Of a stretch of DNA of 64,000 nt, positions 9,112 through 53,193 are shown one piece after another; the stretch's first letter is position 1; each line of letters starts with the position of its first letter. Source of the stretch: a virus. The position numbers were made by a program, and so were the translations under genes. Where the stretch lies: the IMG/VR virus record IMGVR_UViG_3300023213_000167, positions 762 to 64,761 of that record; one strand, given 5' to 3'. The notes under the pieces were generated by a model. That model made no database searches, was not told where the DNA came from, and saw only the letters and a list, made by a program, of their open reading frames with translations.

Positions 9112-9236
9112 CGGCACACCCCGTCAGCGAAGGCACCGCGGGGGTGTTTCACGCTGTTATTGCGGCGCTGTACTTATTCGCCCTGTGGTACCACGCCATG
9201 GCCGCGTGGCGCCACCTAAAGGAACGGGTGCGGTAA
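9069..9236 (+). CDS. Small membrane protein (55 aa), not in the ORF track
   Basis: GGAGG about 9 nt upstream of ATG; MYEDRGGKGPPPHLTAHPVSEGTAGVFHAVIAALYLFALWYHAMAAWRHLKERVR; stops just before the terminator. Confidence 0.5.
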   Translation: MYEDRGGKGPPPHLTAHPVSEGTAGVFHAVIAALYLFALWYHAMAAWRHLKERVR

Positions 9237-9238
9237 AC

Positions 9239-9273
9239 AAAAAAGGCCCCGGGGCAAATGCCTCGGGGCCTTT
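9239..9273. terminator. Intrinsic terminator at the convergent junction
   Basis: aaaaaa-ggccccgggg-caaatg-cctcggggcc-ttt; 10-bp stem with a U6 tract on the minus strand and U3 on the plus strand. Confidence 0.8.
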
Positions 9274-9322
9274 CGTACATATGGCGCAGGTGTTGTAGTT
9301 TGGCTAGTATACTATATATATA

Positions 9323-9562
9323 TTACCGCGATTTCAGCGCCTGCAGGCGCCGATTGACTTCCTCCTGTGAACTGTACTGCGCGGGTGTGACGATGAGACG
9401 GGGTTCCTGTTGCTCCCTCTCTTGTTCATACAGCGTCACGGCGTTGCTCAACAGGACAGCTACAAAGTCCCCGTGACTCGCGTCGTTATCCCCCTTGAGG
9501 CGTAGGATGCGTTCCCACAGGGGCCACTCCACCAGCAACCGTATCTCCCGGTAGCGGGCCAT
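9323..9562 (-). CDS. Small putative DNA-binding protein (ribbon-helix-helix-like)
   Basis: 79 aa; REIRLLV strand followed by two helices (WPLWERILRLK; HGDFVAVLLSNAV). Confidence 0.4.
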   Translation of the reverse strand: MARYREIRLLVEWPLWERILRLKGDNDASHGDFVAVLLSNAVTLYEQEREQQEPRLIVTPAQYSSQEEVNRRLQALKSR

Positions 9563-9875
9563 TATGTTCCTCCCAGGCGTGCTTAGTCATCACCGAACCA
9601 CTGTATTTCTCCAGCATGATGTCCCGCAGCTCGTTCTGAATGTGCTCCAGCTCGTGTAGCAGCACGTACCGCTGGACCGGAAGCGGCAAGGTCTGATCTA
9701 TCACAATCATGCACTGTTGCTTTGCGTGACTGTATATGCTCAGGCCGTCGCAGTCCTCCATCAAGGCCTGTTCTGATTTCGGGATTCTCTTTACTTTCAC
9801 CCGCACACCCGGCAGGTGAATGTACTTGGGAATCGGCCAGTCTCCGTACCACGTTGCGTGTTTGGGTCGCGCCAA
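9486..9875 (-). CDS. ImmA/IrrE-like zinc metallopeptidase
   Basis: CDGLSIY...IVIDQTLPLPVQRYVLLHELEH: HExxH with the typical upstream I-x-I...R-x-x-L-x-HE context. Confidence 0.65.
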   Translation of the reverse strand: MARPKHATWYGDWPIPKYIHLPGVRVKVKRIPKSEQALMEDCDGLSIYSHAKQQCMIVIDQTLPLPVQRYVLLHELEHIQNELRDIMLEKYSGSVMTKHAWEEHNGPLPGDTVAGGVAPVGTHPTPQGG

Positions 9876-16484: not shown

Positions 16485-19055
16485 TCAGTTCCTCGCGTAC
16501 CAGCCGTACCAATGCCAGTTGGCCTTGCTCCCCGTGCGCAGTGGCACGTCAAAGCCGGGCGCTAACTCCTTGAGAAGGCTGACGTTTTTCATGGTTTCGG
16601 TAATAAGCTCCTGGTCCCGCGTCAGGCGGTCAGGATGCAAATCGACTACCAGGTCGTCGTGGACTTCATTGAAAAGCAACGAGACTGGTATTTCGTTGCG
16701 TATTATACCACAGTCCGCGGGGTTTGTCAAGTACTTTTTTCGGACCGTCAGCAGCATGTCTAGCCAGCTACCGTAGGTCATGTGCGCTTCTTTTATTAGC
16801 GCGGCTTCGACTGCCACCAGGGCCGCCCCCGTAACATCCGCGGCCAGGGATTGAACAGGGAAGTTAATTGCCTGGTTAAGCATGTGACCAAAACCTTCGC
16901 TACGTCGGCCGTCTGGGCAGGGCAAATGGCGGACGCGACCTGTAAGACTCCGGACAGACTGGTGTCGGAGTAGTTCATCCTCTCGTGCATGCATATAAGC
17001 AACAACGTGAGGAATGAGTCTAAGGTAGGCCCGTCGAAGGTGATCTGTACGGTCGACGTGCTGGTCCCAGATGCTGTCGAACCTGATGCCGTTATTCCAC
17101 AATTGTTGGGACATTTTAGGAGTTTGCATATTGTAATGAACTCCGAGGACAATTCCTTTGGCTCCACGATATTCTGGTGTCCCTTCCTTTATTTCGTAAC
17201 CCCACATATCCTTAGCAATTCCGATATACCCACTGCCATGATCGCCAAAATGGTGATTAAGATAAGGCTCCTTAGCAAGGAACCCCAGAACCAGCGGCTC
17301 CAGCTTACTGTAGTCGTTGTCGGAGACCATTCCTCCCGGCCATCTACTGCAAATGATTTGACGTACAGCCGGCGTCCAATTTTGACTGTTCGGATTTGAC
17401 GCCGAGCGCCGCCCGGTTCGCGCGCCCAGAGGGTTGAAGTGAAAGGGCAAAAGCGCGACTGGCGTATCTGCCACAGTTCCCACGGGTCGCAGATACCGGT
17501 CAAGTCCGACAACGTTTGTGGAGTGCAGCTTTTCAATGGCATTGTATTTCAGTAGTGTCTCGACGACATGATGCGGAGGAAGGTTTCGTAGGCTTTCCTT
17601 CGAGACCGACGCCAGGCCCGTATCCGTCTTACCAGGGATTGACAGGCCCAGCCGAGTATAAAGCAGATCACGGATGTGATTATCATTGGTGGGCTTAAAC
17701 TCCGTCATGCCCGCCGCCCAGGCTGCCTTACTCAGCTGGTCAGACAGGGCAAGCAGCTGCGTCTCCTGAGACGCGCGTAATGCGTTTAGTACGTTTAGGT
17801 CGACGAAGGCTCCCGTGAGGGACATCCGCTCCAAAGTACAAGCGACCCGGTGTGTGAACACCACCAGCCGCCGCTGACGTGCCAAGGCGAGCATGGCGCC
17901 GTATTTGGCGGCGATATGATAGCTGGCCCAGGCGTCCCGTACACAACGGTCCATACGTAGGTCAGCGGGGACAAGGGACATGTCATGGTTATTACCTTGT
18001 AAGATGGTTTTGGTACGATACTTCCAGGGAGGAGTGTTGGTGAAACTCAGTAGCTGGTCTTCAAGCTCATAGCTGAGGTCGTTCTCGTCTACCATGCGAG
18101 CCAACAGCAGGCTGTCTAACAGGCGCTCCCCGGTCAGCCACTCTTCTTTCAGTGGTAGCCCGGCATCATGTAACTGTTGTAGCTCTCCGGCAGCGCTGTG
18201 TCCACCGAGGTAAGTCGCCCCTTCAAGGCACGCGCGGAAAACTTGGAAGTCATCTTCGGCGGCAGCCGCGCAGTTGCCGTCAGTGGCCGCGACGGATAAC
18301 ACACGATCAGCGGTGTATTCTGTATCGACGAAAATGACTTTGCCGGGAGGGGGCACCGCGGGGATGAACTCCACGGCGGGCTCAAGCGTAAAACGCTTAA
18401 GGTCGTCGAGGATGCGCTGCCGGAGCGGGAGGGCGCCGCGCAGTACGGCGGCGGGATGGTAGGTTACGAAGGCGGGAGGGACGGATTCACCAGGTAATCC
18501 TGGGATGGGGAGGGGTCGTCCGCGGCTGTGGGTAACGTTGTTGTCCCCGTTGTTGGTGAGGGAACGCAAAGCCGTTCCACCCACCGCAAGAATCGCGGAC
18601 GGCTCAAGGATGACAATAGCTCGGAGAAGAAACGGTCGGCAGGCGCGCACTTGCGACATGCTCGGAGTTTGATTGTCGCGCGGACGGCACCGGATGGCGT
18701 TGACAAGCGCAACGTCTCGGTCGTCATATCCTGCCTCTCGCCACAGTTGCCGCAGTAGTCGACCGCTTCGGCCTGTAAATGGTCTTCCCGTACGTTGGTC
18801 TTCATCTGCACCGGGGGCTTCTCCGATTAACAACAGTTTCTTGGTCCAACCCTGTGGCACGAACGGCCGCATGAAAGGCGCGGCACACGCACTGAATAAC
18901 GCACACTTCTGGCACTGTTCCCGCTCTGGCGAAGCCAGAGACAACTGTTCGGGAATGAGGGCGGTGTACTTTGGCTTCTTTAGACGGGGTACCCGGGGTC
19001 TATTGACGCCAGGTAGTTCGGATGTATCTGTCGCCGCAACTGCTTCTTGATCCAA
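16485..19055 (-). CDS. polA: Family A DNA polymerase with N-terminal family-4 uracil-DNA glycosylase and 3'-5' exonuclease domains
   Basis: UDG4: CQKC, GEAPG, NAIRCRP, YHPAA. Exonuclease: VDTE. Polymerase: TGRRSASNPNSQN, DYSKLE, RGAKGIVLGVHY, NFPVQS, VHDD. Exact start uncertain. Confidence 0.95.
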   Translation of the reverse strand: MDQEAVAATDTSELPGVNRPRVPRLKKPKYTALIPEQLSLASPEREQCQKCALFSACAAPFMRPFVPQGWTKKLLLIGEAPGADEDQRTGRPFTGRSGRLLRQLWREAGYDDRDVALVNAIRCRPRDNQTPSMSQVRACRPFLLRAIVILEPSAILAVGGTALRSLTNNGDNNVTHSRGRPLPIPGLPGESVPPAFVTYHPAAVLRGALPLRQRILDDLKRFTLEPAVEFIPAVPPPGKVIFVDTEYTADRVLSVAATDGNCAAAAEDDFQVFRACLEGATYLGGHSAAGELQQLHDAGLPLKEEWLTGERLLDSLLLARMVDENDLSYELEDQLLSFTNTPPWKYRTKTILQGNNHDMSLVPADLRMDRCVRDAWASYHIAAKYGAMLALARQRRLVVFTHRVACTLERMSLTGAFVDLNVLNALRASQETQLLALSDQLSKAAWAAGMTEFKPTNDNHIRDLLYTRLGLSIPGKTDTGLASVSKESLRNLPPHHVVETLLKYNAIEKLHSTNVVGLDRYLRPVGTVADTPVALLPFHFNPLGARTGRRSASNPNSQNWTPAVRQIICSRWPGGMVSDNDYSKLEPLVLGFLAKEPYLNHHFGDHGSGYIGIAKDMWGYEIKEGTPEYRGAKGIVLGVHYNMQTPKMSQQLWNNGIRFDSIWDQHVDRTDHLRRAYLRLIPHVVAYMHAREDELLRHQSVRSLTGRVRHLPCPDGRRSEGFGHMLNQAINFPVQSLAADVTGAALVAVEAALIKEAHMTYGSWLDMLLTVRKKYLTNPADCGIIRNEIPVSLLFNEVHDDLVVDLHPDRLTRDQELITETMKNVSLLKELAPGFDVPLRTGSKANWHWYGWYARN
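16702..16730 (-). promoter_or_regulatory. Consensus sigma-70 promoter inside polA
   Basis: Minus strand reads aaaaaagtac-TTGACA-17 nt-TATAAT with an extended -10 TG. Confidence 0.8.
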
Positions 19056-20967: not shown

Positions 20968-21741
20968 TCAGGAGGCGGTGTATCCGCTAACATCGGCATT
21001 GTTGGCGTTCTCCACGAGGGGGTACATGTCCTTTAGGTAGCGTCCGCGGGCCAGGTTGGGGATATCCGCCAGGTCATCGTATGGCTGTACCAAGATCAGC
21101 TTACACGCGATCCCCCGGCTGGACAGCCAGATTAGGATGGCCGACATAGCTTCCTGGCCGTTACTGTCTGCCACCAACCCGCACATTTTATCACGAAACA
21201 GCTTCGCTGTCAAGTCCAAACTTTGCTCAGGGGGCCGCAGGCCCATGAGGGCAACGCCCATGAAGCCATGCCCGGCGGCAGCCAGGGCGTCCATTGGACC
21301 CTCGGCGATGATGACCGTATTGCGCCGGTTGGCCCGCGGCAGCGGCGCCGGGAGGGGCCACACTACCACGATGGCGTCACCCCGCGGGGCAAAGGGGCTC
21401 ATGTAGCGGATGGGCGGGGGGGCTATGTGCGTGTTATCTAGGAGGTGGACGCTGCTTTCGCTACGCCCGTCTTTCTTCTCCATGAGACGCGCCTGCCAGT
21501 ACAAATTACCCCCGGTAGCCGTGGCTGGGATGACGATACGAGGATTCGCGTCACCGGCATCCCAGGACGGGTACCAACCGTTCTGCCGTGCTGTGTCAAA
21601 GCTGAGCTGCCTGATGCCCAGGTATGACGCCATCAACGCCCACGAGGACACCGTGAAGCAGCCACGCGGCATACTGCTGGAAAAGGGGCGGTCCTTGGTG
21701 CGCGCGCTTTCGCGCGCTTCGTGTGTGTCATCTTGGCTCAT
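20968..21741 (-). CDS. DNA primase, TOPRIM domain
   Basis: RIVIP...YWQAR...RYMSP...IIAEGPMDALAA...GVALMG...VADSN...DDLAD. Confidence 0.8.
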   Translation of the reverse strand: MSQDDTHEARESARTKDRPFSSSMPRGCFTVSSWALMASYLGIRQLSFDTARQNGWYPSWDAGDANPRIVIPATATGGNLYWQARLMEKKDGRSESSVHLLDNTHIAPPPIRYMSPFAPRGDAIVVVWPLPAPLPRANRRNTVIIAEGPMDALAAAGHGFMGVALMGLRPPEQSLDLTAKLFRDKMCGLVADSNGQEAMSAILIWLSSRGIACKLILVQPYDDLADIPNLARGRYLKDMYPLVENANNADVSGYTAS

Positions 21742-22456: not shown

Positions 22457-22485
22457 ATTATAGCATGTTTCAGAGCGGTTGTCAA
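22457..22485 (-). promoter_or_regulatory. Consensus sigma-70 promoter driving the replication operon
   Basis: TTGACA-accgctctgaaacatgc (17 nt)-TATAAT, extended -10, intergenic. Confidence 0.9.
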
Positions 22486-38799: not shown

Positions 38800-38815
38800 G
38801 TCAACCGGGGTTTAC
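38800..38815. repeat. Palindrome copy 4, GTCAAC-CGGG-GTTTAC (1 mismatch)
   Basis: Upstream of the GGAGGTGA RBS of the gene starting at 38760. Confidence 0.75.
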
Positions 38816-42596: not shown

Positions 42597-42990
42597 ACAT
42601 GGGCGTGTCAATCTGTCCCATACCCTTCGGGCCCACATGGGTTGACTAGGCCCACACGTGTTGACTAAACATGTGTTTAGGGGTCCTCCGACGTTCGAGA
42701 GCCGCGGCCGCGCGCGCATGCCTGAAAATCGAGTATGTGACCCAGAAAGGGACCCCCGAATATTTTAAATTTTAGGTACCTTTGCAGGTCATGCCTTTTC
42801 TCCTGATTTATTAAGCATTTACAATACACTGTTTTGCTTAATAAATTCGCGGGGTTGCAGGCCGACACTCGTTTTATGTCGGCGGACACCCCCCTTGTCA
42901 AGTTTATTTTATTTTGTGGCATTTTGCTTACAGCCATTGAGTTTACAGCGCACTTTTGGGGCACTTTTCAGGGTCTTCTTGAAAAAGGTG

Positions 42991-42999
42991 TGGTATAAT
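42991..42999 (+). promoter_or_regulatory. Extended -10 promoter (TGgTATAAT) facing the late module
   Basis: tgtggTATAAT, the same context as the promoter inside polA; no recognisable -35. Confidence 0.65.
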
Positions 43000-43814: not shown

Positions 43815-44552
43815 TTGAAGGACTCACCCCAGGTTGAGGCATATGACTCCCTAAGGTTTGGTAGGGACTTAGCCGGCTCCCCCTATGGAAGCGCAGCCGG
43901 CCCCATGGCGAAGTATGTCTACATGATACACCATGGGCAAACGGCCCTGAAAGAGAAGCTACACGGCCTCCAGAATGAGCCTTTGGACGCCGCCGGGAGG
44001 GGGCAAGCCGAGAAGGTGGGTGAGCTTCTCGCTGATGTACCCCTCCTACATATCTTTTCCAGTGATCTCAGGCGTTCCCACGAGACATCGGACATAATCT
44101 CCCAGGTAAATCCGGGACATCCTGGGGTGCAGGTCCTACCCTCCCTCCGTCCATGGAATCTGGGGGATGTCGCCGGTCAAAAGCTGGACGCCGCTTTCAA
44201 GAAGCTCCTTGATTATTACCAACATCAGGAGCCTGATACCCCCTTCCCCACCGAAGGTGGGGAGCCCTGGAACAGCTACATGGCCCGCTTCATGCCCATG
44301 CTCAAGACACTCTTTGACGGGGCCGTGAAGCTAAAGCAACAGGGCGTGCTTGGCCTCGTTGGACACTCCCACGGCATGCGGGTTGCGGATGCCTGGGTTA
44401 AGGCCGGCGCCCCGGCCAACTTGTCCCTCCCCGCGTCTTTCCACATCAGCGCGGAGCACCCCGCCGCCCCGGATCACCCCTTGAAGTTCGCGTGGGACGG
44501 GAACAATTGGGCTGAGGAGGCCCTGCAACAGCATGGCAATCGGGGGGCTTAA
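43815..44552 (+). CDS. Histidine phosphatase (phosphoglycerate-mutase-like)
   Basis: MIHHGQT (RHG variant), PLDAAGRGQA, FSSDLRRSHET, LRPWNLG, GEPW and VGHS. Confidence 0.85.
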   Translation: MKDSPQVEAYDSLRFGRDLAGSPYGSAAGPMAKYVYMIHHGQTALKEKLHGLQNEPLDAAGRGQAEKVGELLADVPLLHIFSSDLRRSHETSDIISQVNPGHPGVQVLPSLRPWNLGDVAGQKLDAAFKKLLDYYQHQEPDTPFPTEGGEPWNSYMARFMPMLKTLFDGAVKLKQQGVLGLVGHSHGMRVADAWVKAGAPANLSLPASFHISAEHPAAPDHPLKFAWDGNNWAEEALQQHGNRGA

Positions 44553-44898
44553 CGCCTGGGTAGGTGGCGCGCAGGGGGACCATGGCTGGTCCTCCGGGAC
44601 CCTCCAAGTCAATCCGACGGATGGGACGGTCCTCGCCAGCATCAGCGGGCTTACGGGTGGCAAGTACATGTTCGCCACGTCCGGCTTTGGCACGGCGGGC
44701 TGGACATACGACATCCAGCTACAGGACGTCAACAATACCGTAGTCCAGACACAGCGCCGTAACCCGGGCACCGGGACAGACGACTTCTTGTTCCCCAACA
44801 AGGTCAGTTGCCTGGCCGATTATCAGCTCAAGCTGATTCTGCGGGGGGGCATAACGGGTACCGTGCAAATGTCTATCTTCTTCCAGGAGGTGGGATGA
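44533..44898 (+). CDS. Hypothetical virion-like protein
   Basis: 121 aa, G/T-rich and beta-like. Confidence 0.5.
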   Translation: MAIGGLNAWVGGAQGDHGWSSGTLQVNPTDGTVLASISGLTGGKYMFATSGFGTAGWTYDIQLQDVNNTVVQTQRRNPGTGTDDFLFPNKVSCLADYQLKLILRGGITGTVQMSIFFQEVG

Positions 44899-45083
44899 AG
44901 CGCCTTTGGGCCTATATAAAGGACTGGCTGGACCTACAGCATCCGGTCATATGGCCAGAGAACATATGGACCGCTCCCGCGGTTCTGCCCCTAGTGTCGC
45001 TAGACTGCGGCCATACCCATTGGTCCTACGCCATCAGTCATACAGGTAAAACCCAGTGTAGAGACTGTTACGAGAAGCGGTAA

Positions 45084-45782
45084 GTGCCGTCCCACGTCCA
45101 GACGCAGTTCACCACCGCATCGTCTGTTACATCGGTCTCACTCGTTATGACGGCGACAGCTGGGAATGCGGTAATCGCTAGCTTGCTCCTCTATTTTACC
45201 AACGGGGGTGTGACCAATACCGGGGGTTCTCTAACTCAGACCTTCACGGCGGAACCCGCCGGCGGCCTCATTTTTTACCAATTCGCCAACTATAACGTTG
45301 GCGCCGGGTCTATCACATACTCATTTTCTTGGACAAGCTCGAACTCCGTAAGTCTGTTTCTCACGGAGGTCAGCGGTCTTAAGACAAGTGCGGCTTTCGA
45401 CACGAACTCGGCGGGAGGAACCGTCAGTGCGGGGACAAGCGTTGTATGCGGTTCAGCGACACCGGCGGCAGCGAATGACTTCTCTATTGCCCTACTGCAC
45501 TTGGATGGCAGTGTACCAAACAACAGTTCTGAGACCATTGATAACAGCTTCACCGTCCCGACGAACGGGGACCAGAACCTTTCTGGTAACACCCTCAGAT
45601 GCGCACTCGCCTTCAAGGTAATATCGGCTGCTGTCAATCCGACGTGGAGCTGGACAGGTAGCGCGGATGCGGCGGCTATCCAAGGATTGTACCTGGCGTC
45701 AGCCGCCGTAGCATTTACGCCCGACGAGGACTTCTTCATCCCGCAGGTTTTCGTGCCGGAGACCCACGTAAGTGTCTGGTGA
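45084..45782 (+). CDS. Hypothetical virion/decoration protein
   Basis: 232 aa, S/T/A-rich beta-sandwich-like sequence. Confidence 0.55.
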   Translation: MPSHVQTQFTTASSVTSVSLVMTATAGNAVIASLLLYFTNGGVTNTGGSLTQTFTAEPAGGLIFYQFANYNVGAGSITYSFSWTSSNSVSLFLTEVSGLKTSAAFDTNSAGGTVSAGTSVVCGSATPAAANDFSIALLHLDGSVPNNSSETIDNSFTVPTNGDQNLSGNTLRCALAFKVISAAVNPTWSWTGSADAAAIQGLYLASAAVAFTPDEDFFIPQVFVPETHVSVW

Positions 45783-46011
45783 AATCCTTCCTGACACACG
45801 CGGGCATACGGGCGCCAAGAGACACTGGTTCCTTGGCAACACCGTCCCCACCTTCTGTGCTAACTGTCAGGCGCAGGGGCCGTACGTGGCCGAGGAGAAT
45901 TGCACCTTCGCCTTTTGGCTGTGCAATAACTGTTTCGAGAAGTGGGGCCCCATCGCCGCGACCATGATTTTGCCAGACGAAGCATTGGCGATCGACAAAG
46001 GAGACGCATAG

Positions 46012-46512
46012 ATGCCATTCGTTTACACCGATATCCCCGCGGCTGCGGAGTCAACTACAGCGGCGGGCGTAATGTACACCACCAATGCTGCGGGTGGCAC
46101 ACTTACTGACCATGCGCGGTTTCTCACTGCCGCGGGCCGTCAGGCTATTATCCGGGCATGCTATTTGACGGGCCGGGCCAACGCCGCGACTACTATCACG
46201 GGTATCTCAGTGCGCATCATTCGTCTCGCTACCGCCTCAACGGCGGGCACGGTTGGATCCAGTCGTCCGCGGGACCCTGGCGCACCGGCTGCTACCGTGA
46301 CCTTCAACACGGCGCCCACGATTGGTACCACGGCGACGCTACAGCAAGCGTTTGGTTGCGGCAAGGCGGGTCCGGGGGGATGGGTAGCACAGGACCCGGA
46401 TTCAGGAATCCTGCTTGCGCCCGGCGGCGGAGCCAATGGTAACGCCGACGTAGTCAGTGGCGCGCAGGAAGCTTCGCTGAACTTCGACGCCACGCTAGAG
46501 CATATTGAGTAA
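46012..46512 (+). CDS. Hypothetical virion protein
   Basis: 166 aa, A/T/G-rich; AAGGAG RBS. Confidence 0.6.
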   Translation: MPFVYTDIPAAAESTTAAGVMYTTNAAGGTLTDHARFLTAAGRQAIIRACYLTGRANAATTITGISVRIIRLATASTAGTVGSSRPRDPGAPAATVTFNTAPTIGTTATLQQAFGCGKAGPGGWVAQDPDSGILLAPGGGANGNADVVSGAQEASLNFDATLEHIE

Positions 46513-46900: not shown

Positions 46901-48124
46901 ATGCGGGGGGACCGCGTGCTGGACCAGCCTTGGTTTGGCAGCAGTCGTCCCTACCAGGATCCCTTGGACTTCCTGATACGGGCCTATCACGCGGCTAGCA
47001 GCGTCCCCCCAGGCATGAAGGAAGGCGTCATGCAAGGCGATCCTAAGGTCATGGCTATGATGGAGGCAGCATCGCCTGGGCTGACGCGCTTCATACAACG
47101 TATTCCTGGCATATTCAATTTTTCTACATACAAGAATTCATTAGAGGCGGGGGCTACACAACTGCGCAAATTTGTGGACAGGGCTCCTCTTAACAGAAAT
47201 GTTGACATTAGGGTTAGCACCACCGGCCCAGGTAGGCTGAAGGGGCTTCCTCAGGACGTAGAGGACCTCATCACAATGGCGCATGAGGGATTACACGGCG
47301 CCTATTATCAGAAGCCCAATGCCACAGGATATCCTCCCGAGAAACATATTTCAGATATGTATAACCATTTTGTGGAAAGGTTTCCTCACCTGAAGGCTTT
47401 CGCGAAATGGAATGAGATGCATGGATTTCCGGAAGCACAGGCGCAAGCAGAAGCCATTGTTGAAGGCATGGCCCACAGCACCGTGAAGGGGACATTAGGT
47501 AGGTCCCCAGTTGCGGGGCCCTTTCCGTATGATACATCCTGGGATCCATCAATTATTGACCGGATGTCCGAGATGAAAATGCCACGCCCAGGTTCTCCGC
47601 TATTCCGCATGAATCCGCCAAACGACCCCTACGAGAACTTTAAGACGCTGGCCGGCGCCAAGCGCAGCGCGGAAGGCGGACATTTTAACCCGGCCACTGC
47701 TAAACAGGTGATGATGGATCCGCACTCAAGTGAGCCATACCCGGGCGTGGCGGGTAGTGACCGGACCCCAATAAGGACCTGGCAGGCTCCGGTCTCTGAT
47801 TTGCAGGCGCAGATCGTAACGGGGCGACAGCCCTTTAAATTCCCTGTAGAACTGGGGGGAGGTAGGCATCCTGATCATTGGGATCGGTACCAGGGACAAA
47901 TACTGGGCACTAATTTAGGTCCTCCCGATTATGCGAGTCCTATGTATAGTGCCATGTCACCAATGGCAGGTCCTAGTGTAAATTGGCCGTGGGCCACGGG
48001 CCGTGAAATCATCAAAGACTTCCTATGGGGCGCGAGCCCCTCGGGCGCGCTGCGACCACCCTCTGCCGGGAGATCCGGCATCCACGGTGTGATAGATTTT
48101 GGACCCTCTACCCCCCAGCCCTAA
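46901..48124 (+). CDS. Hypothetical protein with HExxH zincin-like motif
   Basis: LITMAHEGLHG followed by AEAIVE. Confidence 0.5.
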   Translation: MRGDRVLDQPWFGSSRPYQDPLDFLIRAYHAASSVPPGMKEGVMQGDPKVMAMMEAASPGLTRFIQRIPGIFNFSTYKNSLEAGATQLRKFVDRAPLNRNVDIRVSTTGPGRLKGLPQDVEDLITMAHEGLHGAYYQKPNATGYPPEKHISDMYNHFVERFPHLKAFAKWNEMHGFPEAQAQAEAIVEGMAHSTVKGTLGRSPVAGPFPYDTSWDPSIIDRMSEMKMPRPGSPLFRMNPPNDPYENFKTLAGAKRSAEGGHFNPATAKQVMMDPHSSEPYPGVAGSDRTPIRTWQAPVSDLQAQIVTGRQPFKFPVELGGGRHPDHWDRYQGQILGTNLGPPDYASPMYSAMSPMAGPSVNWPWATGREIIKDFLWGASPSGALRPPSAGRSGIHGVIDFGPSTPQP

Positions 48125-49706
48125 CGTACCGGACGTTCCCACCCAGGAACAGCTTGGCAGCCTCATGTCTGCCTTGAAATGGGTAGGCACGCCCCATCAG
48201 CTGCCTGAGTTTGCGGACCCGGGCCGCGGGGCCTTTTGGATGGGCACGCCTCCCGGCACACCTGGGAAGGAGCCGCATCCCGGCCTACTTGAGTTCAGCC
48301 CCCTTCTGGGCATGATGCCTGGTGCGTCCTCGGCAGGCGCGGCGGGGGAGGCAGCGCCCCGCATCCCACGCCGTGTGCAGCTCACGAATCTTGCCAACCA
48401 AGCCAAGGGGGGCGACGAATCCGCGTTTAACCAACTGTTTAACATGCTGAGCGGGACCGCGCAACGGTTGGCGACACGTTATACCGGCGGTGAGAAGTAT
48501 ACGGGGCGTATGTTAGCTCCCGAAGGGCGCACTGGGGAAATTGTCCCCGAGGTTAATCAGCCATCCGCTTATCACGATGCTCTCAGTGCCGCCAATGAAC
48601 GTATATGGTCAGCACTACAGTCCTTTGACCCCACCAAGGGTGCATTCGGGCCGCATTACTTCCACCAGGCCCGCCAAGGAGCGCGCCGGGCGGCGACTAC
48701 CGCCACAGACATCGCCCCAGTCAGTGAAGACGTCAAGGTGTTAATGCGCCGGATCGAGGCGTGGCAGGACAAGATGGAGGCAGGTACGGCATTGAAACAA
48801 GGGTATCCGTATCGGCCTTCGTTGGATCTCGCCTTTAAACACCTTAAAATTCATCCGGTAGACGCCCAAATGGTCCGGGATGCTTACGCATCTCCTGGTC
48901 ACACCGGCGCCGGCGTGATCCGTCTAGACCAGCCAATTGATACGCGTGGTAGTACATCTGCGCAAGCCCCATTGGAGGAAATAGTAAGCCGTGACGCGCC
49001 AGGTACTCACCGAACAGAAGCTGCAGAGTCGGCCGAAGCGCGCACTCCTGGTATGACAGCTGGGCCTGAACAGGAGCGCCGTCTCAGCAGCGCGCATTCC
49101 GCGCTTCGTCAGGCGCAGCGCGAGTTCCAACGCGACAACGAACGGGATTGGGACATATATAACCGCTGGTTCAACGGTGAAACCATGCGCCAAATTGGGG
49201 ACGTGCATGGTGTAGGCAAGTCGCAGATACAGCGTATCATAGAGAAGACCGAAGCTACCTTGGCCAAACGGGCCCGAGAGCTCGCGGGGGAGACCGATCC
49301 ACGCACGCCCCGCCAGCAGGCGGGCGCCTCCCGCCCACGTGCCGCCGCGCAGCAGCAGGCCTGGGAGACACCAGAGACCGGAGAGATCCCGCCCGGGTTG
49401 CCCCGCCTTAGCGGCGGCAGTGATAGACCTGAATCCTCTGGTAGCTTCCGTGGGCCCCTGTCCCCGGGACAGCGCCACGATTTAGAACAGGCTAATCGTG
49501 TTGGCTCGAAAATTGGAGGGGGTTCGCAGCCATACAATGCGGCGGAAATCGCCCCACAATTGCAACCACAACGATTTCCAGGCGCGGTGTTTTCTCGTGA
49601 TTTGAATATACGTTACCCCTACAACGAGAAAGTTGCTAAACCTTTTAACGACCCGCGAGGTTTTTGGCTGTTCCTGAAATCACTAATGGGGAATTATGGC
49701 ATTTGA
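48099..49706 (+). CDS. Sigma-70-family factor (regions 2, 3, 4) with long N- and C-terminal extensions
   Basis: AKGGDESAFNQL (2.1), IWSALQSFDPTKGAF (2.3), RPSLDLAFKHLKI...IRLDQPI (3) and GETMRQIGDVHGVGKSQIQRII (4.2 HTH). Confidence 0.8.
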   Translation: MDPLPPSPNVPDVPTQEQLGSLMSALKWVGTPHQLPEFADPGRGAFWMGTPPGTPGKEPHPGLLEFSPLLGMMPGASSAGAAGEAAPRIPRRVQLTNLANQAKGGDESAFNQLFNMLSGTAQRLATRYTGGEKYTGRMLAPEGRTGEIVPEVNQPSAYHDALSAANERIWSALQSFDPTKGAFGPHYFHQARQGARRAATTATDIAPVSEDVKVLMRRIEAWQDKMEAGTALKQGYPYRPSLDLAFKHLKIHPVDAQMVRDAYASPGHTGAGVIRLDQPIDTRGSTSAQAPLEEIVSRDAPGTHRTEAAESAEARTPGMTAGPEQERRLSSAHSALRQAQREFQRDNERDWDIYNRWFNGETMRQIGDVHGVGKSQIQRIIEKTEATLAKRARELAGETDPRTPRQQAGASRPRAAAQQQAWETPETGEIPPGLPRLSGGSDRPESSGSFRGPLSPGQRHDLEQANRVGSKIGGGSQPYNAAEIAPQLQPQRFPGAVFSRDLNIRYPYNEKVAKPFNDPRGFWLFLKSLMGNYGI

Positions 49707-49954
49707 AATACTGTTGGGATTCATGACAAGTGCATGGCTATTTACATTGGCTGGCGTGGCATATGGAGGATGGCGGTATGCTTACCTACCTTTTCGTGCC
49801 TTGCGTGCTGATATTACCACCCTTGCCAGAGAAGTGGACGCTTTGAAGAAGGAAGTGGGGCTGCGGAAGGTGGCCGATATGAGCGACGTGGAACAGGCGC
49901 GCCGGGAACGTGCGGCCCGCTGGAACTTCACGGCACCGCCCGTGGGGACTGACC

Positions 49955-50392
49955 GTGCCACGTAAGAAAGACCTCACCGTCGCGGGTATGTTCAGTGATG
50001 TCCCCAAAGTGATTCGTAAGAAGGGGCGCGTGGCAGGTTTCACACACCTCCGTGACCGCATCCTGGACAAATGGGAAATCCTCGCCGCCAAGGCGAATGC
50101 CTATAGCTTGCTAAAACTGGCTATTGAGGCGGACCGCCATGCTATGTTCGCGCAGGTGGCCGAGACTAAGGCGAAGGACAGTTACGATACCGAGCTGTAC
50201 CGAGGTTTGTCTGATTACCTAGCAGGGAAGGTGGACGCGGCTCCTGACGCGACCGGCAAGTACGCCGAAATCCGAAACACGGGCCCCCTGAACATACATC
50301 CCTCCGATGAGGCCCTTGAGGAGCTAAGCGCTCCAGAAGAGGAACATTCACAACATGGCGAACAAGTGCCGAGCGAACCAGTTGGCGCGTGA
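49955..50392 (+). CDS. Hypothetical protein, possible terminase small subunit
   Basis: Basic N-terminus, helical body and acidic tail, shortly upstream of terL; function inferred from position only. Confidence 0.35.
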   Translation: MPRKKDLTVAGMFSDVPKVIRKKGRVAGFTHLRDRILDKWEILAAKANAYSLLKLAIEADRHAMFAQVAETKAKDSYDTELYRGLSDYLAGKVDAAPDATGKYAEIRNTGPLNIHPSDEALEELSAPEEEHSQHGEQVPSEPVGA

Positions 50393-50561: not shown

Positions 50562-50930
50562 ATGGCTATTACTACCCTCCCTCTTGCTGTACCATCTGGT
50601 TATAGTCAATACCAGGATACGAACGTAGGCGCCACTGTCAACACCATCAAGGCGACGGGCGCCACGTTATTCAGTATGGTGATTGACAATACCAGCAATA
50701 CGGCGATTACGTACGTGAAGTTCTTCTTTGTCGCGGCGGGTTCGGTGACGCTGGGTACGACGGGGCCGGACTGGATTGTGCCAATCCCCTCCAGTAAGAA
50801 GATTACGGTGCCCCTGCCCGACGGTCCTGCCTATCCCACGGCGCTGTCCTACGCGGCTGTGACTACCAATGGCACGGCGGGCACCACGGCGCCCACCAAC
50901 CCGGTGGTGCTGACGGTACTGTATACGTAA
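50562..50930 (+). CDS. Hypothetical virion-like protein
   Basis: 122 aa, T/V/A-rich beta sequence. Confidence 0.55.
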   Translation: MAITTLPLAVPSGYSQYQDTNVGATVNTIKATGATLFSMVIDNTSNTAITYVKFFFVAAGSVTLGTTGPDWIVPIPSSKKITVPLPDGPAYPTALSYAAVTTNGTAGTTAPTNPVVLTVLYT

Positions 50931-52647: not shown

Positions 52648-53193
52648 ATGCCAAAACCATATCCGGTCAGTGGACAAGTATTTGTCCCGGCCATTGCCGT
52701 GGCTCCGTCTGGCGTCAACGGGGGCGTCGTTATCGGCACTTACAGCAACGTTAACTTGACGCCCGCGGTTACGGGCAATGCGATTTTGGACAGCTATGTC
52801 CTACCTGCGTTCGCCCTGGATCGTCCAGGAACTGGACTGTATATCACTGCCTTTGCAACCACGGCGGCGAATGTCAATAGCAAGACGCTGGCCATCAACT
52901 TCGCCGGTACGGGTGCAGTAGGTGTCGCGCCTGTGAATGGAACCGTCATTGTCACACAGGCAACTACTGCCTCCGGTGCCTCATTGCTGGTCGAGGTGTG
53001 GGTCTTCAAGACGGCTGCCAGTGCGCAGACGTACGCAGGCTATGGTACCGCTGGCGCCGCGCTTGCCGCGCCCACTACGGGTACCCTCAGCGTAGCCGAC
53101 ACCGGCGGCATTCAGGTTAACCTGGTTATGAACAATGCTACGGCCGCTGGCGACAGCACCGTGCAGTTCTGGCAGATTCAGTACCTTGGCTAG
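52648..53193 (+). CDS. Hypothetical virion protein
   Basis: 181 aa, A/T/G/V-rich; AGGAG RBS. Confidence 0.6.
   Translation: MPKPYPVSGQVFVPAIAVAPSGVNGGVVIGTYSNVNLTPAVTGNAILDSYVLPAFALDRPGTGLYITAFATTAANVNSKTLAINFAGTGAVGVAPVNGTVIVTQATTASGASLLVEVWVFKTAASAQTYAGYGTAGAALAAPTTGTLSVADTGGIQVNLVMNNATAAGDSTVQFWQIQYLG

Follow-up and report, generated by a model that had tools for sequence, protein, structure and literature searches.

We analyzed a 64,000-nt window (positions 762 to 64,761) of IMGVR_UViG_3300023213_000167, the IMG/VR record of an uncultured phage with a short tail. The record is 66,321 bp long, rated linear and about 75% complete. On the forward strand of the window, at 48099-49706, lies an open reading frame (ORF) whose 535-amino-acid (aa) product resembles sigma-70-family transcription factors. 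The genome is organized as two arms. The leftward arm, from about 43.5 to 9.5 kb, carries small ORFs, an amidoligase-type cassette, and genes for primase, helicase, DNA polymerase A and nucleotide enzymes. The rightward arm starts at about 43 kb and carries the sigma-like gene, TerL (50933), portal, scaffold and capsid, continuing on to large virion proteins at the window start. The sigma-like gene begins about 4-5 kb past the start of the rightward arm, and TerL, on the same strand, lies 1.2 kb downstream of it. Its parts are as follows.

48099..49706 (+): whole sigma ORF, 535 aa from TTG; alternative ATG at 48165, 513 aa
48099..48371 (+): Pro/Gly-rich N-terminal extension (aa 1-91)
48210-48239 (+): FADPGRGAFW (aa 38-47), in the N-terminal extension
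48264-48317 (+): conserved GKEPHPGLLEFSPLLGMM peptide (aa 56-73), in the N-terminal extension
48372..48710 (+): sigma region 2 (aa 92-204), with a 2.1 helix like that of extracytoplasmic function (ECF) sigmas, an insert, and 2.2-2.4 with FDPxKGxF...RQ
aa 131-155 (+): insert of about 25 aa inside region 2, between the 2.1 helix and 2.2-2.4
48720..48899 (+): region-3-like segment (aa 208-267), collinear with RpoD/FliA 3.0-3.1 at the level of pattern
48900..49076 (+): long linker (aa 268-326), predicted to be disordered, in the place of region 3.2
49077..49289 (+): sigma region 4 (aa 327-397), with a 4.2 helix-turn-helix that aligns well
49290..49703 (+): Pro/Gly-rich C-terminal extension (aa 398-535)
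49644-49703 (+): last 20 aa, with the second FxDPxRGxFW copy, at the end of the C-terminal extension

The sequence-only reading had placed a 535-aa ORF here, and its coordinates, which give a TTG start, were exact. The codon score supports the frame: the annotated frame was the best of the forward frames in all segments, extensions included, and the score was weak for the linker and the C-terminal extension. By our own estimate from base composition, the 140 stop-free codons past region 4 would arise by chance about once in 100 cases. In the public gene call, the protein begins with ATG 48165 and has 513 aa. We favored the TTG start because a helix-like stretch of the protein, which can be aligned with a relative, starts ahead of that ATG. 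The bases GGTG lie nine bases 5' of the TTG.

The protein very likely belongs to the sigma family. The NCBIfam sigma-70 profile TIGR02937 matched aa 109-391 (profile 2-164/165, E 4e-8, 33.1 bits), and a six-frame search with the same profile (34.9 bits, E 2.5e-10) identified this as the sole sigma-like gene in the record; both scores are under the curated cut-off of 42.9 bits. Weak matches were obtained to Pfam Sigma70_r2 (aa 153-198, E 0.004) and Sigma70_r4 (aa 353-383, E 0.11), both under the gathering score, and to phrog_351, the PHROG sigma factor family (E 0.005). Ten feature families in the ESM Atlas (every named look-alike) and 10 of the 10 structure rows were sigma factors. The structural look-alikes were mostly of the SigB/F/G type with region 3, carrying PF04539. 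When aligned by MAFFT with E. coli RpoD (C-terminal 255 aa), FliA and RpoE and with phiEco32 gp36, the protein was collinear with the three E. coli sigmas and had patterns in common with them in regions 2.1, 2.2-2.4, 3.0-3.1 and 4.2. The sequence-only reading had recognized regions 2, 3 and 4. Regions 2 and 4 are borne out statistically, at scores under the cut-offs, but region 3 is visible only as a pattern collinear with RpoD/FliA regions 3.0-3.1 and via the Atlas look-alikes.

AlphaFold single-sequence models were poor (pLDDT 43 for the full protein and 47 for aa 85-400), and a Foldseek search of the PDB with such a model returned helical-repeat matches alone, which are meaningless. PDB sequence searches with the protein gave no match. 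Comparison by hhalign with a two-sequence profile gave E 0.054 for region 2.2 alone, from a profile too thin to inform.

Modelling with the RNA polymerase core, which the sequence-only reading had suggested as a check, was run on fragments (sigma aa 85-270 and E. coli beta' 230-340) to probe contact with the beta' clamp helices. The predicted complex reached an ipSAE of 0.48, compared with 0.01 for the best control; at least 69% of contacts agreed between runs, and the partner pLDDT was at least 70. Of 78 solved complexes, 51 reached the mark applied to such predictions, as did 2 of 108 mismatched pairs; at scores of 0.60 or under, only 5 of the 78 did so, along with all 4 passing mismatches. 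Because similar holoenzyme complexes have already been solved, we read this weakly supportive prediction as likeness rather than binding, and the score may reflect memory of those holoenzymes.

The extensions add 230-250 residues to the sigma core. The N-terminal extension is about 91-108 aa long (17% Pro, 13% Gly) and the C-terminal one about 140 aa (12% Gly, 12% Pro), a composition that bears out the earlier description of both as Pro/Gly-rich. Both are predicted to be disordered, and neither they nor the linker have paralogous segments elsewhere in the genome. Known phage sigmas are 180-260 aa long and lack comparable extensions; at 535 aa, this one is about twice as large as usual. A peptide of about 30 aa in the N-terminal extension, GTPPGxPGKxPHPGLLEFxPLLG, is the sole part that this protein has in common with two metagenomic proteins (65-79% identity). 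After the common peptide, one of these runs into a sigma 2.1-like helix and the other into unrelated sequence. Judged by its sequence, the peptide is a portable, conserved short motif.

Relatives of the whole protein were sought widely. A tblastn search of 50,697 phage records found none, and in a word search of 5.8 billion proteins the protein matched itself alone. An exhaustive phmmer search of 1.8 billion representatives returned only a helix-turn-helix-repeat protein and the two sharers of the N-terminal peptide, which both sit on contigs of less than 1.2 kb. Viral, metagenome and genome contigs were scanned for the locus with the protein or the motif alignment, which added nothing further, and the distant TerL relatives L004, CRP-7 and MW202692 lack a similar gene ahead of their terminase. 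Among the billions of database proteins this one stands as a singleton, and general claims must therefore await relatives or experiments.

The promoter-like sites and repeats of the two arms are listed below.

16702-16730 (-): TTGACA-17-TGnTATAAT, 12/12, replication genes
21185-21213 (-): TTGACA-17-TGnTATAAT type, 11/12, replication genes
22457-22485 (-): TTGACA-17-TGnTATAAT, 12/12, replication genes
42991..42999 (+): extended -10 promoter-like site TGGTATAAT, near the head of the rightward arm
26441, 32807, 36716, 39251, 39663, 40349, 41641, 42448, 42586: palindrome copies, with a degenerate copy at 38805

The three sites in the replication module lie on the coding strand, in or between replication genes, with A-rich stretches upstream, and are probably the strongest host-dependent promoters of the phage. 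Since these are textbook sigma-70-type promoters, the host holoenzyme is evidently used. In the early region, the sequence-only reading had found no consensus sigma-70 promoter. At the threshold of our promoter scan this held, with no sigma-70-type site above 10/12 in 29-44 kb versus two perfect sites and one of 11/12 in the replication region. The extended -10 site TGGTATAAT near the head of the sigma gene's arm qualifies the claim. As judged by its sequence, this site could drive the sigma gene via the host holoenzyme.

The palindrome GTGTCAACCyrGGTTGACAC (20 bp, about ten copies) occurs in the leftward arm only, 10-30 nt before ribosome-binding sites. The copies contain TTGACA yet have no -10 at the right spacing. 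We rejected them as sigma-70-type promoters for this reason and because of their distance of 10-30 nt from the ribosome-binding sites. Two direct repeats, GGCCCACA-n-GTTGACTA, adjoin the last palindromes at 42630-42690 (+), within the inter-arm region of about 2.4 kb that has low coding potential.

No relative with genomic context was found, and the function of the sigma protein therefore has to be inferred. The reading we favor, and consider probable, is a phage middle or late sigma made during infection that acts on the host core RNA polymerase. We infer that this very divergent sigma-70-family protein, with its sigma2, sigma3-like segment and sigma4, would be produced during infection and bind the host core enzyme, which would then be switched to phage middle or late promoters. 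The disordered extensions with their conserved short motifs, which probably lie outside the sigma core, may tune its activity, its stability or the binding of partners. Among the large ORFs of the record, none was found to encode a phage RNA polymerase. Most likely, an ordinary job is done here by an unusual, extended, orphan protein.

The proposed role would resemble that of phiEco32 gp36 or of late activators located just upstream of terS. The phage sigma gp36 of phiEco32 is produced in the middle phase and drives transcription of both middle and late genes (PMC12276001). Like the protein described here, it is a distant sigma-70 relative with sigma2-like and sigma4-like domains, and it is used with the host core enzyme. 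phiEco32, too, is a podovirus with a two-armed genome, and an amidoligase-type cassette is common to both phages (by PHROG matches here). However, gp36 has 214 aa, lacks extensions and a region-3-like segment, and is encoded in the replication arm, whereas the sigma gene here is in the arm with the virion genes. The two proteins have no detectable sequence similarity. RinA is an example of a late activator encoded immediately before terS (PMC3152322). RinA/ArpU-type activators are alike in position, just before the packaging genes, as presumed late-operon switches, but they are small, unlike this full sigma-type protein of 535 aa. Group 3 sigmas (FliA/sigma-28, SigB/F/G) share the sigma2-sigma3-sigma4 order with this protein if its region-3-like segment is counted, supply the Atlas structure look-alikes and align collinearly. 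They differ in having no terminal extensions; here, region 2.1 looks ECF-like, the linker in place of 3.2 is much longer, and no family cut-off is reached.

Several results weigh against a working middle or late sigma. Every profile score is under the curated family cut-offs, and for region 3 (PF04539) there was no Pfam match at E values up to 10. Where RpoD has its tryptophan pair in region 2.3, this protein has His and Gln; the pair is missing from RpoE in the same MAFFT alignment too, and its loss is common among ECF sigmas. The precedent of phage sigmas leaves the extra 230-250 residues unaccounted for. A homologue with genomic context was absent from all database searches made. The regions upstream of the late genes yielded no recurrent motif above chance by k-mer enrichment, inspection by eye or mismatch-tolerant enumeration against shuffles, searches that one or two late promoters would slip past.

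The extra residues, together with the gene upstream, raise the alternative of a pro-sigma, which the sequence-only reading had also named. The genes and the site concerned are listed below.

46901..48124 (+): upstream orphan gene, 407 aa, overlapping the sigma start by 26 nt
48111..48116 (+): C6 run in the 26-nt overlap, where a putative +1 shift would fuse both ORFs
49696..49965 (+): downstream 89-aa gene, whose ATG overlaps the sigma stop; N-terminal hydrophobic helix, then a charged helical tail

There is no need to invoke a programmed +1 frameshift that fuses the ORF of 407 aa to the sigma ORF: a GGTG precedes TTG 48099, and the relative P0005 has its own Met start. The downstream 89-aa gene, translationally coupled to the sigma stop, may encode a small membrane-tethered anti-sigma-like partner or a lysis-type protein.

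In the pro-sigma alternative, which we regard as unlikely, the ORF encodes an inactive precursor, and removal of the N- and/or C-terminal extensions, possibly by the overlapping HExxH protein, would leave an active sigma of about 300 aa. The conservation of the N-terminal peptide in two metagenomic proteins that are otherwise unrelated or divergent is consistent with this. So is the distribution of two further motifs. In the six-frame translation of the whole genome, FxDPxRGxFW occurs twice, at aa 38-47 and aa 516-523 of the sigma protein, thus at both its ends and nowhere else. The pattern G[LVIM][LVIM][ED]FxP likewise has only two occurrences, one in the N end of the sigma protein (GLLEFSP) and one in the last residues of the 407-aa protein, whose C-terminal GVIDFGP resembles it. 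Both patterns were picked post hoc, which counts against the argument and makes them leads, and BLAST matches of the upstream protein to the motif were not significant alone.

The 407-aa protein has HEGLH at aa 128-132 (nt 47282-47296) and Glu residues at aa 172-188, 40-55 aa downstream; the whole six-frame translation, 100,160 residues long, contains 5 matches to HExxH. Its Atlas look-alikes include the zincin families M78, M85, M48, SprT and matrixin, but all are weak, with scores of 0.78-0.83 (TM-by-target 0.44-0.65) under the lead threshold of 0.9, and it has no Pfam, PHROG or PDB sequence match. A second real HExxH ORF (LLHELEH, 129 aa) lies at 9486-9875 (-), at the far end of the leftward arm.

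Pro-sequences on sigmas have precedents. In Bacillus, the protease gene spoIIGA lies directly upstream of the gene for its pro-sigma, sigE, in the same operon. BldN (ECF121) has an N-terminal pro-sequence that is processed (PMC7826278). BldN, pro-sigma-E and pro-sigma-K all have an N-terminal extension on a sigma core and, for sigma-E, an upstream protease gene as a further likeness. In contrast to these, the protein described here has extensions at both ends, which are predicted to be disordered, its neighbouring peptidase is putative, and there is no homology.

Slightly less probable again is a protein that no longer works as a sigma, in which the degenerate fold would serve as an inhibitor or decoy that binds RNA polymerase, or as a plain DNA-binding regulator. 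The sub-threshold profile scores, the loss of aromatic residues in the melting region, the 25-aa insert in region 2 and the very long linker all fit such a protein, as does the failure of three motif-search methods to find a cognate promoter motif. However, sigma2 and sigma4 are both kept, in the right order and over the full profile. The lack of the tryptophan pair, as RpoE illustrates, is not peculiar to this protein, and no other sigma or phage polymerase was found that could run the late genes.

The sequence-only reading had placed the gene in the virion gene block and had suggested that the sigma travels in the virus particle and is injected along with the DNA to start early transcription, by itself or (as could be added) with its zincin-like neighbour. 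We consider this very improbable. The gene is indeed near the virion genes and on their strand, but all genes from 44.5 to 50.9 kb that flank it are orphans, none of them assignable to the virion. Moreover, its position before the terminase is one where late regulators usually sit, and not among the head, tail or portal-distal ejection-type genes. The Pro/Gly-rich, disordered termini would suit a delivered protein, and the modular N-terminal peptide could be a targeting signal. The palindrome-rich 29-44 kb region without a strong sigma-70-type promoter also fits, yet host-type promoters are found in both arms, and the TGGTATAAT site offers ordinary expression after infection.

In N4-like virion polymerases, a zincin-like MPTase domain is always present as a fusion, and such domains are common in polyvalent proteins that are delivered (PMC5512222); the zincin-like neighbour is reminiscent of them. 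The N4 virion RNA polymerase and the polyvalent proteins associate a transcription protein with an HExxH domain, as the pair of genes described here would, and are themselves long, multi-part and delivered at infection. Here, however, the protein is a sigma and not a polymerase, the two parts are separate ORFs, and the zincin fold is putative. No virion-packaged sigma was found in the literature searched, and the word "sigma" is absent from the survey of polyvalent proteins (PMC5512222). Packaging in the virion is unsupported by the sequence. The most elaborate version, in which the sigma and the overlapping zincin-like protein are injected as a delivered pair and the sigma, trimmed at its end motifs, reprograms host RNA polymerase before phage expression, would give the first virion-borne sigma factor and is just as improbable.

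Phage-encoded sigmas are a known route to the takeover of host transcription, and they are small and bare. The protein described here carries about 230-250 extra disordered residues, a portable conserved peptide and a motif at both ends, and a possible peptidase gene overlaps its start. If the extensions are pro-sequences, docking signals or packaging signals, they would add a new control layer to phage sigmas. In that case, the protein could also find use in synthetic circuits as an orthogonal, switchable sigma.

Further features of the genome were noted around the sigma gene and at the end of its arm. Five small Thr/Ala/Gly/Ser-rich orphans (44533-46512, 50562-50930 and 52648-53193) flank the sigma gene and TerL. 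They look beta-rich by eye, and several of the orphans at 44.5-50.9 kb also look virion-like, an impression of composition only that we do not count as evidence. For the orphan at 45084-45782, the Atlas gave many unnamed viral look-alike clusters (0.97), and a homologue of 41% identity was found on a 2.3-kb contig that offers no context. The two arms converge at 9236-9280 on a GC-rich hairpin flanked by runs of A and of T, probably a terminator that works in both directions.

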